A DNA stretch of 64,000 nucleotides. Source: Escherichia coli. GTDB taxonomy: Bacteria; Pseudomonadota; Gammaproteobacteria; Enterobacterales; Enterobacteriaceae. This document shows, in pieces, positions 1 through 47,885 of the stretch. The DNA lies in assembly GCF_003334785.1 (NCBI RefSeq), contig NZ_QOWV01000015.1; one strand, given 5' to 3'. Below the pieces are notes generated by a model. The model saw only the letters and a program-made list of their open reading frames with translations, did no database searches and was not told the DNA's origin. The first letter of the stretch is position 1, and every line of letters starts with the position of its first letter. Made by a program: the position numbers and the translations under genes.

Positions 1-241
1 AGAAAATATCCGGCGGGTTCCGGAGCGCCAGTCTGTAGGTTTATCCATCAATAGAACTCCGTCTAATTTAGAAGGAGCTCTAATTTAGTCTGCAAGGAGC
101 AGGTGTTACAGACGGCATTGGCTTTACGCTTACAGACCGGGTTATGCAGCCACGCGTAGAACCCGGCCCGGGCGACATCCAGTACCCGACACATTGTCAT
201 CACACCCCATACAGTGCGGTGCTCATTGATAAAGCGGTACT

Positions 242-526
242 TCAGTAGGGCTCCCTTGCAAAGTACCGCGCGGCCTTTTTCAGGATATCCCGTTCTTCTT
301 CGGTACGTTTTAGCTGCGCCCGTAGTTTCAGGATCTCGCTTTTGGCTTCCAGTAAATCCCGGGCATGCTGCTCGCTGTTATCCGGTTTGATAGCCCGTAG
401 CCACTTGTAGAGGCTGTGGGCAGAAACGCCCAGACGGTGAGATACTTCGGCAACGGAATAACCGCGTTCCGTTATCTGTCGGACGGCTTCTTCCTTAAAT
501 TCAGGTGTAAATCGTGGTGTGCTCAT
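242..526 (-). mobile_element. IS3-family transposase OrfA (helix-turn-helix N-terminal ORF, 94 aa); downstream orfB appears disrupted
   Basis: Translation has the typical IS3-family OrfA architecture (HTH then leucine-zipper-like C-terminus ending KKAARYFA). Reverse complement of ~130-241 encodes an OrfB-like N-terminus (KYRFINEHRTVWGVMTMCRVLDVARAGFYAW) that hits stops in all frames near position ~75-115. Confidence 0.75.
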
Positions 527-809
527 ATGCTCCCCCCTATACTCAAACTATAGGGCAGGATCGTCTACCGGGGTGGGGTCAGTCCATTACTAACTGACAG
601 TTGTACCGAATACTGGGGGCAGGTCAAGCGCTTTAGCTTGTGTGGCAACAACCTCCTTTACAGGACCAGGTAGACGATTACCCTCTGCTGTTTCTGTGCT
701 CAACGCAATCTACGGCTATCCATTTTCTGCCAGTGGTTGCAAAGACGACCATTCAACGTCAGCAAAGTTTCGCAATGCACTGCTATGTAACTCATTGATC
801 CTACGTAGA

Positions 810-865
810 ATTTAAAATCCCTCGGCGTTCGCGCTGTGCGGGTTCAAGTCCCGCTCCGGGTACCA
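810..865 (+). other. 3' fragment (anticodon loop to CCA end, ~56 nt) of tRNA-Leu(UAA), leuZ-type; probable attachment-site remnant
   Basis: Sequence atttaaaatccctcggcgttcgcgctgtgcgggttcaagtcccgctccgggtacca matches the 3' part of E. coli leuZ as I recall it; the preceding bases do not form the tRNA 5' half. Confidence 0.75.
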
Positions 866-908
866 TGGGAAAGATAAGAATAAAATCAAAGCAATAAGCA
901 GTGTCGTG

Positions 909-933
909 AAACCACCTTCGGGTGGTTTTTTTG
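909..933 (+). terminator. Rho-independent terminator (original tRNA operon terminator)
   Basis: GC hairpin accacc-ttcg-ggtggt followed by a T7 run. Confidence 0.7.
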
Positions 934-1060
934 TGCCTGCAACTTGTCGTTACACTCTCCTTAATTTTTAATCACCAGCAAAGCCACTCAAAAAGTATCT
1001 CTGATACGGACCGGCATGTAAGATAGGTGCTGGCGAGTTGAGATCCACAAGGAAAAGCGT

Positions 1061-1726
1061 ATGAAAACGGGACCGTTAAACGAAAGTGAGTTGGAATGGC
1101 TGGACGATATTCTGACCAAATACAACACTGACCACGCCATCCTTGATGTGGCGGAGCTGGACGGTTTATTGACGGCGGTGTTGAGTTCTCCGCAAGAGAT
1201 TGAACCGGAACAGTGGCTGGTTGCCGTGTGGGGTGGGGCTGACTATGTGCCGCGCTGGGCGTCAGAGAAAGAGATGACGCGCTTTATGAATCTGGCTTTT
1301 CAACATATGGCCGATACCGCAGAGCGTCTGAACGAATTCCCGGAGCAGTTTGAGCCGTTATTCGGCTTGCGAGAAGTTGATGGCAGCGAGCTGACGATTG
1401 TTGAGGAGTGGTGCTTTGGCTATATGCGGGGCGTGGCACTTTCTGACTGGTCAACGTTGCCCGATTCGTTAAAACCAGCGCTGGAGGCGATTGCGCTGCA
1501 CGGTACTGAGGAAAACTTCGAGCGGGTAGAGAAAATGTCGCCAGAAGCGTTTGAAGAGAGCGTAGATGCCATTCGACTGGCGGCGCTTGATCTACATGCG
1601 TACTGGATGGCGCATCCGCAGGAAAAAGCTGTTCAGCAACCGATCAAAGCAGAAGAGAAACCGGGGCGTAACGATCCTTGCCCGTGCGGTAGTGGTAAGA
1701 AATTTAAGCAGTGCTGCCTGCATTAA
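1061..1726 (+). CDS. yecA: YecA, UPF0149/SEC-C motif metal-binding protein
   Basis: 221-aa ORF ending in the SEC-C Zn-finger motif [13 protein letters not shown]; position next to leuZ and tyrP as in K-12. Confidence 0.93.
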
Positions 1727-1787
1727 GAGGTCAAATTGGGTGTCAGCGTTAATTCTGGCACCCAATAAGGAATTTGAGGCTATCTGA

Positions 1788-2999
1788 TCACCCCACTTCT
1801 GGTAACAACCCTGCCGCAATCAAAAATTGCACGCCAATCACAGCAATACCACAGAGAAACACCACCACCAGCGCCGGACGACCACCTTTCACCCGGTAAC
1901 CCGCCTGAGGATTGTGCTTTCTGCTTTGCCAGGTCAACAGCGAAGGGATAATCAATGCCAGTACCGCCAGCGCCACACCGGCGTAACCCAGCGCCATCAC
2001 AAATCCTCGTGGATAAAACAGTGCAAACGCCAACGGCGGCAGAAAGGTAATTGCACCAGTTTGCAACCGTCCACCAACGGTATTTGAACGCTGAAATAAA
2101 TCAGCCAGATAATCAAATAAGCCTAACGCAACGCCGAGAAATGACGTGGCGAGGGCTAAATCAGCAAATAAATGCACTGCCAGCTCAACATGCGGAGAGG
2201 CCACCATTTCGCGTAATGCCTGTAACAGCCCGTTTAATCCGGCATGATTAGCCAGCAATCCCATAAAGGTTGTTGAATCAATGCTGCCAAGCGTTGCCAC
2301 CTGCCAGAAAATATATGCCACCAGGGGGATCGCACTACCGGTTATAAACACCCAGCGTAGCTTACGAACGTTGCCATCCATATAGCTGACAATACTCGGC
2401 ACGCTACCGTGAAAACCAAATGAGGTAAAAATCACCGGGATTGCTGACAGAGCCAGCCCCTGTTGCAACGGCAGGGTTAAAAGATTCACTTTGTGAATAT
2501 GCGGTAGCAGCAATACCAGCATCACCACCAGAAAAATAATTTTGGCGCTGAACAGAAAACGGTTAAATAAATCGACCAGCGATGTCCCGACACAAACCAC
2601 GCCACCGGCAACAAAAGTGAACAACAGCACGCCAGCGGTTGCCGACATTGAAATACCTGTCCAGTCGCTGATGCTGGAGGCCAACAATTCACCGGCACCG
2701 CTGATGTATGCCGCAGTCAGAGCATACATTAAGAACATCATACTGAAGCCCGTCAGCCATTGACCGTAGCGTCCCAGATAGCGTTTTGCCAGCGTGCCCA
2801 GACCGGTATCTGCCGGAACATGCTGGTACACCTCCAGCAGTAATAGCGCCGTGTAGCACATCAACGCCCAAAGCCCAATCAACAAGATTAACGTAACGCT
2901 AAAACCAACACCGGCCGCAGCCAGCGGCATTGCCAGCATGCCAGCGCCAATTGTGGTTCCCGCCACGATAAAAACACTTCCCAGGGTTCTGTTTTTCAC
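1788..2999 (-). CDS. tyrP: Tyrosine-specific transport protein TyrP
   Basis: 403-aa polytopic membrane ORF recognised as TyrP; conserved synteny. Confidence 0.93.
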
Positions 3000-3077
3000 G
3001 CTTTCTTCTGTCCTGACGATCTTTATGAGTGATATCTGCGGCGCAGGTTAAGGCATAACGGCTTCTTCGTCAAACCG

Positions 3078-3110
3078 ACGTTACATATGGTGTAAATATA
3101 AATGTACAAT
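3078..3110. promoter_or_regulatory. TyrR box(es) in the tyrP promoter
   Basis: tgtaaatataaatgtaca at 3091-3108 matches TGTAAA-N6-TTTACA with one mismatch; adjacent weaker half-sites. Confidence 0.6.
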
Positions 3111-3190
3111 AAAAAGCATTCAGTCCTGCGCTGGCGCAAAGTCTTCATAAGCGGCAATCGCTACGCTAGGCTTTTTTTTGAGGAGGAACG

Positions 3191-4623: not shown

Positions 4624-4639
4624 TGTGATTTGCATCACA
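4624..4639. promoter_or_regulatory. CRP binding site (azuC promoter)
   Basis: Perfect TGTGA-N6-TCACA (tgtgatttgcatcaca) about 90 bp upstream of the azuC start. Confidence 0.7.
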
Positions 4640-4721: not shown

Positions 4722-4808
4722 ATGAAACTGCGCAAAATCCTGAAAAGTATGTTCAATAACTATTGCAAGACGTTCAAAGACGTACCGCCAGGCAATATGT
4801 TCCGATAA
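4722..4808 (+). CDS. azuC: Small protein AzuC (28 aa)
   Basis: ORF translates to MKLRKILKSMFNNYCKTFKDVPPGNMFR, matching the AzuC small protein; too short for the supplied ORF track. Confidence 0.85.
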   Translation: MKLRKILKSMFNNYCKTFKDVPPGNMFR

Positions 4809-12499: not shown

Positions 12500-12928
12500 T
12501 TAATCTCCCGTAAGTGGAACTAACAGCACATCGACCTCACTTGAGGCAATCACTCTTTTCGCCGAGCAGGATGCTCGCGAAAAGAAACTGTGATTGTGAT
12601 TACCGCAAATCACCAAATCGAAATGATGTTTGTGACATACTTCCAGAATATGTTCGCTTAACTCACCGTAGGCAATAAACGTCTTGTCAACGGGATACCC
12701 CGCATCCTGAATTAACTTATCAAGAAAGCTTTGCGTTTCTTCCTGCATCACGCTGCGTAAATCTTCAAGCATCGGCGCGGCTAATTGATTGTACATTTCC
12801 GGGTCGGAAGCGAGAGTAATTAAACTGATGTGTCCCTTTACTGGCCTGGCGATAGATACCGCTTTTGCCAGCAGTTGCTGACTTTCCGGTGTAACCGCAA
12901 CAGCGACAAGAATATTGCTATAGCTCAT
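12500..12928 (-). CDS. uspC: Universal stress protein UspC
   Basis: 142-aa ORF recognised as UspC; convergent with otsA. Confidence 0.93.
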   Translation of the reverse strand: MSYSNILVAVAVTPESQQLLAKAVSIARPVKGHISLITLASDPEMYNQLAAPMLEDLRSVMQEETQSFLDKLIQDAGYPVDKTFIAYGELSEHILEVCHKHHFDLVICGNHNHSFFSRASCSAKRVIASSEVDVLLVPLTGD

Positions 12929-13429
12929 AACCTGTTCCTTATTCTGTGAACTTCAGGTGACATTAAAGCTTTACTCCTAATGGAGAAACGACGCAATCCC
13001 AACTCGGTCAAACAGGTAAATATTAGTCTGATTATTAGTAAAGACAATTAATCAATCACTCCCGGTGATCATATAATTTCAAATGTAATTATAAGAAAAT
13101 AGTGTACTGATTCTCCGCATTAAACAGTGGTTAATATATGCAAAACATTTTATTAACATTAAGTTGATTGTTGCCTTTCTTTGTATTTAATTAGTTTGTT
13201 GTGCGGTAAGTGTCTGTTTAAAAATAGCTTATCTGGTATTGCATGAAAGTGATTATTTATAGCAGATGATTATTTACGGTGTGTTATTTTAACTGTGCGC
13301 AACATCCCATTTCGATTATTCCTGTTTCATTTTTGCTTGCTAGCGTAGCGAAAAACTTTTTAACAGATTGAAATACACCCAAAACAAAAGTATGGCTTAT
13401 GCATTTATGTTAAGTAATTGAGTGTTTTG

Positions 13430-13445
13430 TGTGATCTGCATCACA
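13430..13445. promoter_or_regulatory. CRP binding site of the flhDC promoter
   Basis: tgtgatctgcatcaca is a perfect TGTGA-N6-TCACA, ~260 bp upstream of flhD in an AT-rich regulatory region. Confidence 0.75.
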
Positions 13446-13706
13446 TATTATTGAAAATCGCAGCCCCCCTCCGTTGTATGTGCGTGTAGTGACGAGTACA
13501 GTTGCGTCGATTTAGGAAAAATCTTAGATAAGTGTAAAGACCCCCTTCTATTTGTAAGGACTTATTAAACCAAAAAGGTGGCTCTGCTTATTGCAGCTTA
13601 TCGCAACTATTCTAATGCTAATTATTTTTTGCCGGGGCTTCCCGGCGACATCACGGGGTGCGGTGAAACCGCATAAAAATAAAGTTGGTTATTCTGGGTG
13701 GGAATC

Positions 13707-14057
13707 ATGCATACCTCCGAGTTGCTGAAACACATTTATGACATCAACTTGTCATATTTACTACTTGCACAGCGTTTGATTGTTCAGGACAAAGCGTCCG
13801 CTATGTTTCGTCTCGGCATAAATGAAGAAATGGCGACAACGTTAGCGGCACTGACTCTTCCGCAAATGGTTAAGCTGGCAGAAACCAATCAACTGGTTTG
13901 TCACTTTCGTTTTGACAGCCACCAGACGATTACTCAGTTGACGCAAGATTCCCGCGTTGACGATCTCCAGCAAATTCATACCGGCATCATGCTCTCAACA
14001 CGCTTGCTGAATGATGTTAATCAGCCTGAAGAAGCGCTGCGCAAGAAAAGGGCCTGA
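13707..14057 (+). CDS. flhD: Flagellar master regulator subunit FlhD
   Basis: [24 protein letters not shown]... (116 aa); an in-frame GTG at 13698 would add 3 residues. Confidence 0.96.
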
Positions 14058-14059
14058 TC

Positions 14060-14638
14060 ATGAGTGAAAAAAGCATTGTTCAGGAAGCACGGGATATTCA
14101 GCTGGCAATGGAATTGATCACCCTGGGCGCTCGTTTGCAGATGCTGGAAAGCGAAACACAGTTAAGTCGCGGACGCCTGATAAAACTTTATAAAGAACTG
14201 CGCGGAAGCCCACCGCCGAAAGGCATGCTGCCATTCTCAACCGACTGGTTTATGACCTGGGAACAAAACGTTCATGCTTCGATGTTCTGTAATGCATGGC
14301 AGTTTTTACTGAAAACCGGTTTGTGTGATGGCGTCGATGCGGTGATCAAAGCCTACCGTTTATACCTTGAACAGTGCCCACAAGCAGAAGAAGGACCACT
14401 GCTGGCATTAACCCGTGCCTGGACATTGGTGCGGTTTGTTGAAAGTGGATTACTGCAACTTTCCAGCTGCAACTGCTGCGGCGGCAATTTTATTACCCAC
14501 GCTCACCAGCCTGTTGGCAGCTTTGCCTGCAGCTTATGTCAACCGCCATCCCGGGCAGTAAAAAGACGTAAACTTTCCCAGAATCCTGCCGATATTATCC
14601 CACAACTGCTGGATGAACAGAGAGTACAGGCTGTTTAA
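14060..14638 (+). CDS. flhC: Flagellar master regulator subunit FlhC
   Basis: 192-aa ORF with the Cys cluster (CNCCGG...CSLC) typical of FlhC. Confidence 0.96.
14569..14595 (+). promoter_or_regulatory. Sigma-28 (FliA) class III promoter for motA operon / MotR leader
   Basis: TAAACTTT-N11-GCCGATAT closely matches the FliA consensus TAAAGTTT-N11-GCCGATAA; lies inside the flhC 3' end. Confidence 0.65.
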
Positions 14639-32629: not shown

Positions 32630-33385
<756 letters not shown>

Positions 33386-33772
33386 TTTTTACCGTTGCAT
33401 CATGTCGCCCAATATGATGCTTGCTCGTACCAGGCCCCTGCAATTTCAACAGGGGCCTTTTTTTATCCCTGAGCAGTATAAAAAACGAACGATAACCGTG
33501 ATCTGTTGAGCGGGTGACAGTGCGCATAGCGTTGTGCTAAAAATATTTTTTATATTCACATTGATTATGGGATTTAAATTGCTAAAACTGATAAATATAT
33601 ATTCTAAATAGCAACTGGGTTATTCCTTAGCAATTAATGATTACATTGTAATAAATCATATTCTTTATCGATTATTTCAGGCAGTGTTGTGCCGAGTTAT
33701 GCAAGCGGTTAATTCGTTGTGTATTTAATTATACAATGATTTCGGTGTTCTGGAATTTATTTAGAGGAATCT

Positions 33773-37375: not shown

Positions 37376-37482
37376 GCTGCCTGATGCGCTATGCTTATCA
37401 GGCCTACATAGTCCCTGCAATATATTGAATTAGCAAGGTTTTGTAGGCCGGATAAGGCGTTCACGCCGCATCCGGCAGTAAT
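37376..37482. repeat. REP/BIME elements downstream of torZ
   Basis: gcctgatgcgctatgcttatcaggcctaca and gtaggccggataaggcgttcacgccgcatccggca are canonical REP palindromes. Confidence 0.7.
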
Positions 37483-46545: not shown

Positions 46546-47559
<1,014 letters not shown>

Positions 47560-47561
47560 GT

Positions 47562-47885
47562 CGGATTGGTCGCTCGCACCGCATCCGAAATTGGCAGTGT
47601 GCCTGATGCGACGCTATTCGCGTCTTATCCGGCCTACCAGAGATAGCGAACCGTAGCTCGGATAAGGCGCTCGCGACGCATCCGACATTGGCAGTGTGCC
47701 TGATGCGACGCTATTCGCGTCTTATCCGGCCTACGAGAGATAGCGAACCGTAGGTCAGATAAGGCGCTCGCACCGCATCCGACATTGGCAGTGTGCCTGA
47801 TGCGACGCTGTTCGCGTCTTATCAGGCCAGCCAGAGATAGCGAACCGTAGGTCGGATAAGGCGCTCGCGCCGCATCCGACAAATG
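47562..47885. repeat. BIME/REP cluster (about three tandem ~100-bp units)
   Basis: Repeated units of cgcatccgacattggcagtgtgcctgatgcgacgct(a/g)ttcgcgtcttatc(c/a)ggcc...agagatagcgaaccgtagg with small variations. Confidence 0.85.

Follow-up and report, generated by a model that had tools for sequence, protein, structure and literature searches.

In Escherichia coli K-12, insertion sequences (IS) located at about -96 to -476 relative to the flhD transcription start have been shown to lift the repression of flhDC and to increase motility (PMC5100188, PMC11237407, bioRxiv 10.1101/840991), and the literature agrees with a preliminary description of the locus studied here that laboratory K-12 lines often carry an activating IS1 or IS5 at this place (PMC5100188, PMC5493358, PMC11237407, bioRxiv 10.1101/840991). 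Regulator binding as well as IS activation has been documented for the region (PMC5493358, PMC11237407, PMC9600491). Insertions at the locus arise outside the laboratory too, as illustrated by the uspC-IS30-flhDC marker (PMC5007776). The question raised by the uspC-flhD region in a stretch of 64,000 nucleotides of E. coli DNA (hereafter the window) is whether it is free of such elements and what its state tells about the source strain and its motility.

We are nearly certain that it represents the native divergent control region of uspC and flhDC of a natural, non-K-12 lineage, as found in NCTC 86, that this region has never been hit by an IS, and that it should work as in E. coli generally. 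This explanation is built on the anatomy of the locus, the absence of IS, the sequence of the CRP (cAMP receptor protein) site and the allele frequencies determined here.

Organization and integrity of the uspC-flhD region

The genes uspC and flhD are divergently transcribed within the order otsBA-uspC / flhDC-motAB-cheAW, with motA and motB on the plus strand after flhC; the RefSeq annotation of the colinear FORC 064 genome places the same genes at the same coordinates around uspC-flhDC (Table 1). Both flanks of the native region are present in their otsBA-uspC / flhDC-motAB context, and the DNA between them is colinear with IS-free references and contains nothing added. UspC differs from its MG1655 counterpart in a single residue, at codon 62 (Q62 in the window, H62 in MG1655). 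The ATG at 13707 is the RefSeq start of flhD and an in-frame GTG at 13698 is the older one, hence the intergenic region measures 778 bp in the current annotation and 769 bp (12929-13697) when counted to the GTG. The preliminary description of about 770 bp of AT-rich sequence holds for composition (35.7% G+C as compared with 50.6% for the whole window) and, by those earlier bounds, for length; its end at 13697 reflects the older GTG start and has to be moved to 13706.

Table 1 Coordinates of features in the uspC-flhDC region of the window
Feature	Position	Strand	Basis or remark
uspC (universal stress protein C)	12500-12928	-	142-aa ORF; annotated as uspC at matching FORC 064 coordinates
uspC-flhD intergenic regulatory region, uninterrupted	12929-13706		Colinear with IS-free E. 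coli genomes
Empty IS1 target site CATTTATG	13402-13409		Single copy; 8-bp duplication around IS1H in MG1655
Intact TTAA, published IS5 insertion hotspot, -99 to -96 of flhD transcription start	13410-13413		Sequence; PMC5100188
CRP site TGTGATCTGCATCACA, perfect palindromic core, centre -71.5 for a start at 13509	13430-13445		Sequence
Lineage-specific T at -63, adjoining the CRP core	13446		Allele alignment; C in most E. coli
Inferred weak sigma-70 promoter: -35 TTGTAT (13474-13479), 17-bp spacer, -10 TACAGT (13497-13502)	13474-13502	+	Sequence and start at 13509
flhDC 5' untranslated leader, 198 nt, inferred start 13509	13509-13706	+	Homology to K-12; six differences from MG1655
Putative position of antisense RNA AsflhD	13509-13728	-	Homology: MG1655 b4839 mapped through the alignment
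TAGGAAAAATCTTA, resembling an RcsAB box just downstream of the flhD start	13513-13526	+	Sequence; identical to MG1655
Predicted 5'-UTR hairpin, GCCGGG-GCUU-CCCGGC core	13629-13648	+	Predicted fold; also in the full-leader fold
flhD, intact, 116 aa	13707-14057	+	Protein without differences from MG1655 FlhD
flhC, intact, 192 aa	14060-14638	+	One difference from MG1655: D90 versus N90 (codon at 14327-14329)

The earlier statement that the flhDC region lacks an IS is confirmed by the absence of a transposase ORF and of IS ends and by the end-to-end alignment with IS-free genomes. Two frames of at least 40 aa touch the intergenic region (one of 40 aa and one of 45 aa), neither of them a transposase, and the ORF list contains no transposase ORF in 12929-13706. 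When the terminal inverted repeats of 13 IS elements common in E. coli were used in a fuzzy search, the best hit had six mismatches in 16-18 nt, and a repeat search of the region returned short chance pairs but no IS-like inverted or direct repeats. The alignment with MG1655 and five other alleles revealed no extra base, scar or target-site duplication, the differences within the region being substitutions and a single 1-bp indel. Thousands of genomes matched the region over its full length in one piece of 769-771 bp.

Towards K-12 the region proved colinear once IS1H was removed, with neither IS inverted repeats nor a target-site duplication in 12929-13697. The window aligns to both MG1655 flanks of the 768-bp IS1H, which lies between uspC and flhD in that strain, and IS1H itself is missing. 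Because CATTTATG occurs once in the window and is duplicated in MG1655, the IS1 target site is empty.

The IS-activated alleles concern the same locus: the sequenced MG1655 has IS1 at about -106 (placed 106 bp ahead of the transcription start in bioRxiv 10.1101/840991), RP437, MC1000 and BW25113 derivatives have IS5 at -99/-96 (a hotspot position given in PMC5100188, there citing Barker 2004 and Wang & Wood 2011), and further insertions reach out to -476. In contrast to these alleles, the window has no IS1, IS3 or IS5 at about -96 to -476 and keeps both target sequences unoccupied. The derepression ascribed to IS insertions is not applicable to it, since no IS is present and the targets are free. 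The uspC-IS30-flhDC marker of wastewater-naturalised phylogroup A E. coli (PMC5007776) maps to the same intergenic region, but the window carries neither IS30 nor ISEc33 there.

Interrupted versions of the region, unlike the window, are illustrated by two natural isolates. In O78 strain 3 the otherwise 99.8% identical region carries IS1 in the flhD leader at about 13652-13666, a position at which insertions abolished motility in laboratory work (PMC5100188); in IAL7255 the CRP site itself is interrupted, at about 13439-13451, by an element of approximately 1.1 kb. The clinical genome BHUCD01 (NZ_CM183442.1), a candidate natural relative with IS1 at the MG1655 site, was set aside on account of its MG1655-like size and coordinates. 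Its SNPs are window-like and its UspC is of the window type; the genome was probably assembled with guidance from a reference, so that its IS1 may be an artefact.

Lineage and frequency of the IS-free state

Twenty-two genomes of natural isolates share the 769-bp region at 100% identity, among them NCTC 86 (Escherich's strain), FORC 064 and O157:H16 98-3133, and only 68 genomes reach at least 99% identity to it. Eight independently assembled natural isolates are also 100% identical over the 24 kb around it (8000-32000); they come from humans, a pig, a cloacal swab and hospital wastewater, with the source of one isolate unrecorded. On the grounds of these two identities the window comes, as judged from its sequence, from a natural isolate and not from a K-12 derivative. 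IS-free K-12 (BW25113 and non-motile MG1655 stocks) has the same genes, promoter position and 198-nt leader and, bar one 1-bp indel, the same length; its region is about 98% identical to that of the window, the two differing at 15 of 769 positions, of which six fall in the leader.

Comparison of seven alleles leaves the window with seven private changes, namely a 1-bp deletion at 13125, T at 13282, G at 13395 and 13401 (both beside the IS1/IS5 hotspot), T at 13446 (-63, flanking the CRP core), G at 13631 in the leader hairpin and C at 13706, position -1 of the flhD ATG. Between 13006 and 13582 the intergenic allele is a mosaic with respect to six reference alleles. Its uspC-proximal part is mostly like K-12 and BL21, positions 13141, 13151 and 13544-13562 match O157:H7 (13544-13562 also CFT073) and 13582 matches O157:H7 only, a pattern that suggests past recombination within the intergenic region.

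The 769-bp query matched 5,422 of 5,426 complete E. coli genomes, 5,272 of them with one place at 80% coverage or more, in a search that joins pieces up to 884 bp apart and can therefore mask IS1. When the search was repeated with a 500-bp query (13000-13499) unable to bridge IS1, 5,586 places were found in 5,416 genomes, which corresponds to about 170 genomes (about 3%) with a split region; the split records listed include K-12 laboratory strains. The IS-free state is thus the default of the species, at about 96-97% of complete genomes, and the locus is ordinary. In a survey whose scope was IS30, the one element specifically reported, IS30 at this region was absent from 845 human and animal isolates and carried by naturalised wastewater strains (PMC5007776).

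As the IS-free state is the species default, the missing IS says little by itself. The feature is a known one, the textbook regulatory region as it usually occurs, and carries little weight as a discovery. Its value is practical: the source strain is not a motility-activated laboratory derivative of K-12 and lacks the wastewater IS30 marker.

CRP site, promoter and leader

A perfect CRP site had been proposed at 13430-13445, and TGTGATCTGCATCACA is located exactly there as a faultless 16-mer of the consensus TGTGA-N6-TCACA, but it is the norm of the species and nothing special to this strain. The 64-kb window contains two perfect TGTGA-N6-TCACA sites versus 0.07 expected from shuffled sequences. 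The other palindrome, TGTGATTTGCATCACA at 4624-4639, precedes by about 80-100 bp azuC, a small protein gene placed at 4722-4808 by colinearity with FORC 064. If transcription starts at 13509, a start transferred from K-12, the flhDC site is centred at -71.5 and has a spacing of class I type (-61.5, -71.5, -82.5). Work by Soutourina and co-workers from 1999 reportedly placed CRP at -71.5 of flhDC and found it to be an activator. CRP has been shown to activate flhDC from this region (PMC5493358), and cAMP-CRP-dependent transcription of flhDC has been reported for K-12 and UTI89 (bioRxiv 10.1101/840991).

The same CRP 16-mer was found in the aligned alleles of BL21(DE3), O157:H7, O111:H8, CFT073 and Ecol_244. 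A 32-mer with TCACA-C is present in 4,474 of 5,426 genomes, so the perfect palindrome occurs in at least 4,474. The K-12 form TCACG-C, with G in place of A at 13445 (-64), occurs in 415 of the 5,426, mostly laboratory K-12 strains in the sampled listing, and the TCACA-T form of the window is rare, the exact 58-mer of its CRP region being present in 64 of 5,338 genomes. The majority natural allele (BL21, O157:H7, O111:H8, CFT073 and the at least 4,474 genomes) is uninterrupted and has the perfect palindrome, as does the window, but is followed by C where the window has T, and the window shows six further private changes. IS-free K-12 ends its right half-site in TCACG, whereas the window has a perfect TCACA and then T, a base that matches the extended CRP consensus ending in TCACATTT.

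K-12 carries a minority, degenerate allele at the flhDC CRP site. Since the perfect palindrome is the majority allele, K-12 is a poor yardstick for the wild type at this site, a point of relevance whenever K-12 motility rules are applied to natural isolates. It is conceivable, though on balance unlikely, that the K-12 half-site TCACG is derived and weakened, the perfect palindrome being typical of the species, and that the lineage of the window improves the site further by T at -63. The polarity assumed here rests on the A at 13445 in all non-K-12 alleles compared, namely BL21(DE3), O111:H8, O157:H7, CFT073 and Ecol_244; a search of genome contigs for an outgroup, run with TGTGATCTGCATCACNNATTATTG, yielded only an unrelated Kosakonia locus that precedes a galactarate-dehydratase-like gene. 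Should the K-12 change reduce activation by CRP, this might partly account for the poor motility of IS-free K-12 and the ready selection of IS insertions in it, as well as the motility of IS-free natural isolates without insertions.

The transcription start was placed at 13509 because both the IS5 hotspot at -99/-96 (PMC5100188) and the 3' end of MG1655 AsflhD map accordingly. A consensus promoter scan of the region gave no plus-strand promoter and one minus-strand candidate (13315-13286). That the flhD promoter stays below the threshold is compatible with a weak, activator-dependent promoter, and the scan is not informative in this respect. The motif TAGGAAAAATCTTA may be the RcsAB box that Francez-Charlot et al. 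2003 reportedly located just after the flhD start.

In the leader, the hairpin has a predicted minimum free energy of -14.5 kcal/mol with G at 13631 versus -9.3 kcal/mol with the common A, owing to an extra G-C pair; the 198-nt leader as a whole folds no better than shuffled sequence (z = -0.41). AsflhD has been described as an RNA of about 220 nt that starts 22 nt inside flhD (PMC9600491). No Rfam family matched inside 12929-13706 at gathering thresholds.

Expression of flhDC, motility and other features of the window

Transcription start, regulator occupancy and the resulting expression level are carried over from K-12 work; against such a transfer stand the 15 differences from K-12 and the private changes of the window close to functional elements. 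By this analogy a weak sigma-70 promoter would start flhDC transcription at about 13509, with cAMP-CRP on the -71.5 palindrome as its activator. Upstream AT-rich DNA and the box just after the start may bind the repressors H-NS, LrhA, OmpR, RcsAB and others; binding of regulators such as these to the flhDC region has been described (PMC5493358). At the post-transcriptional level, CsrA, small RNAs and the antisense AsflhD would act on the 198-nt leader.

Two other accounts of the locus have to be weighed against this one. An IS could once have been present and then excised, or the assembly could have collapsed one that the genome in fact contains. Laboratory cultures frequently gain or lose an IS at this place, with mixed populations on record (PMC11237407, PMC5100188), and the genome does carry IS elements, as window 1-809 matches an IS3-family transposase. 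Yet no duplicated target, scar or extra base distinguishes the region from IS-free genomes, and the sequence recurs unchanged in the 22 independent complete genomes with the 24-kb flanks identical in eight, which makes such a history extremely improbable.

The other account accepts the IS-free state and questions the regulation: lineage-specific changes, with T at -63, G at 13395 and 13401, G at 13631 and C at -1 of the ATG as candidates, would shift flhDC expression away from that of the textbook locus, so that neither 'wild-type' nor 'tight' would be apt. The seven private positions, the rarity of the CRP-region 58-mer and the predicted gain of about 5 kcal/mol in the leader hairpin speak for it, as does the occurrence of a change at the same -63 position in an MC1000 derivative with altered motility, though this derivative had also lost its IS5 in comparison with the parent (PMC5100188). 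We nevertheless regard a shifted regulation as distinctly unlikely: the core elements (CRP 16-mer, -10, -35 and start codon) are unaltered, 22 genomes from varied hosts carry the allele without any change, and NCTC 86, a carrier of the allele, makes H10 flagellin (PMC5382810), which is compatible with ordinary function.

The native, never interrupted control region remains the preferred reading, and no observation speaks against its structural side, but it does not warrant the prediction of 'wild-type, tightly regulated motility' made in the preliminary description, since IS-free natural isolates can be strongly motile. The term 'tightly regulated' transfers unsafely because it was derived from IS-free K-12 strains. 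Three uropathogenic strains without any insertion displayed fast, flagella-dependent and glucose-insensitive motility (bioRxiv 10.1101/840991), and H10 flagellin was detectable in NCTC 86, the region of which is 100% identical (PMC5382810). The sequence supports a native architecture, presumably CRP-dependent, and no particular level of motility.

Several features were noted elsewhere in the window. Over its first 809 bases it lacks homology to the pgsA / tRNA-Gly-Cys-Leu stretch that FORC 064 has there; in the best-matching genomes the DNA matched by bases 134-900 carries the annotation of an IS3-family transposase, and a 900-base query from the window start was covered to at least 80% in only 70 genomes. 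Within the 3' part of tRNA-Leu the homology to FORC 064 sets in again; ARAGORN detected no complete tRNA, and the segment 1-865 looks like an IS or island junction at a tRNA-Leu gene. The interval between ruvB and znuB contains a tandem repeat (47550-47880; period about 97 bp, copies about 91% identical), which overlaps an Rfam naRNA4 match (47753-47828) and is about 195 bp (two units) longer than in FORC 064. Rfam matches at gathering level were also obtained for MicL (33157-33464, plus strand), overlapping the 3' part of cutC, for C0465 (19088-19165, minus strand) between cheW and tar, and for ES036 (37400-37442, minus strand) between torZ and cmoB.
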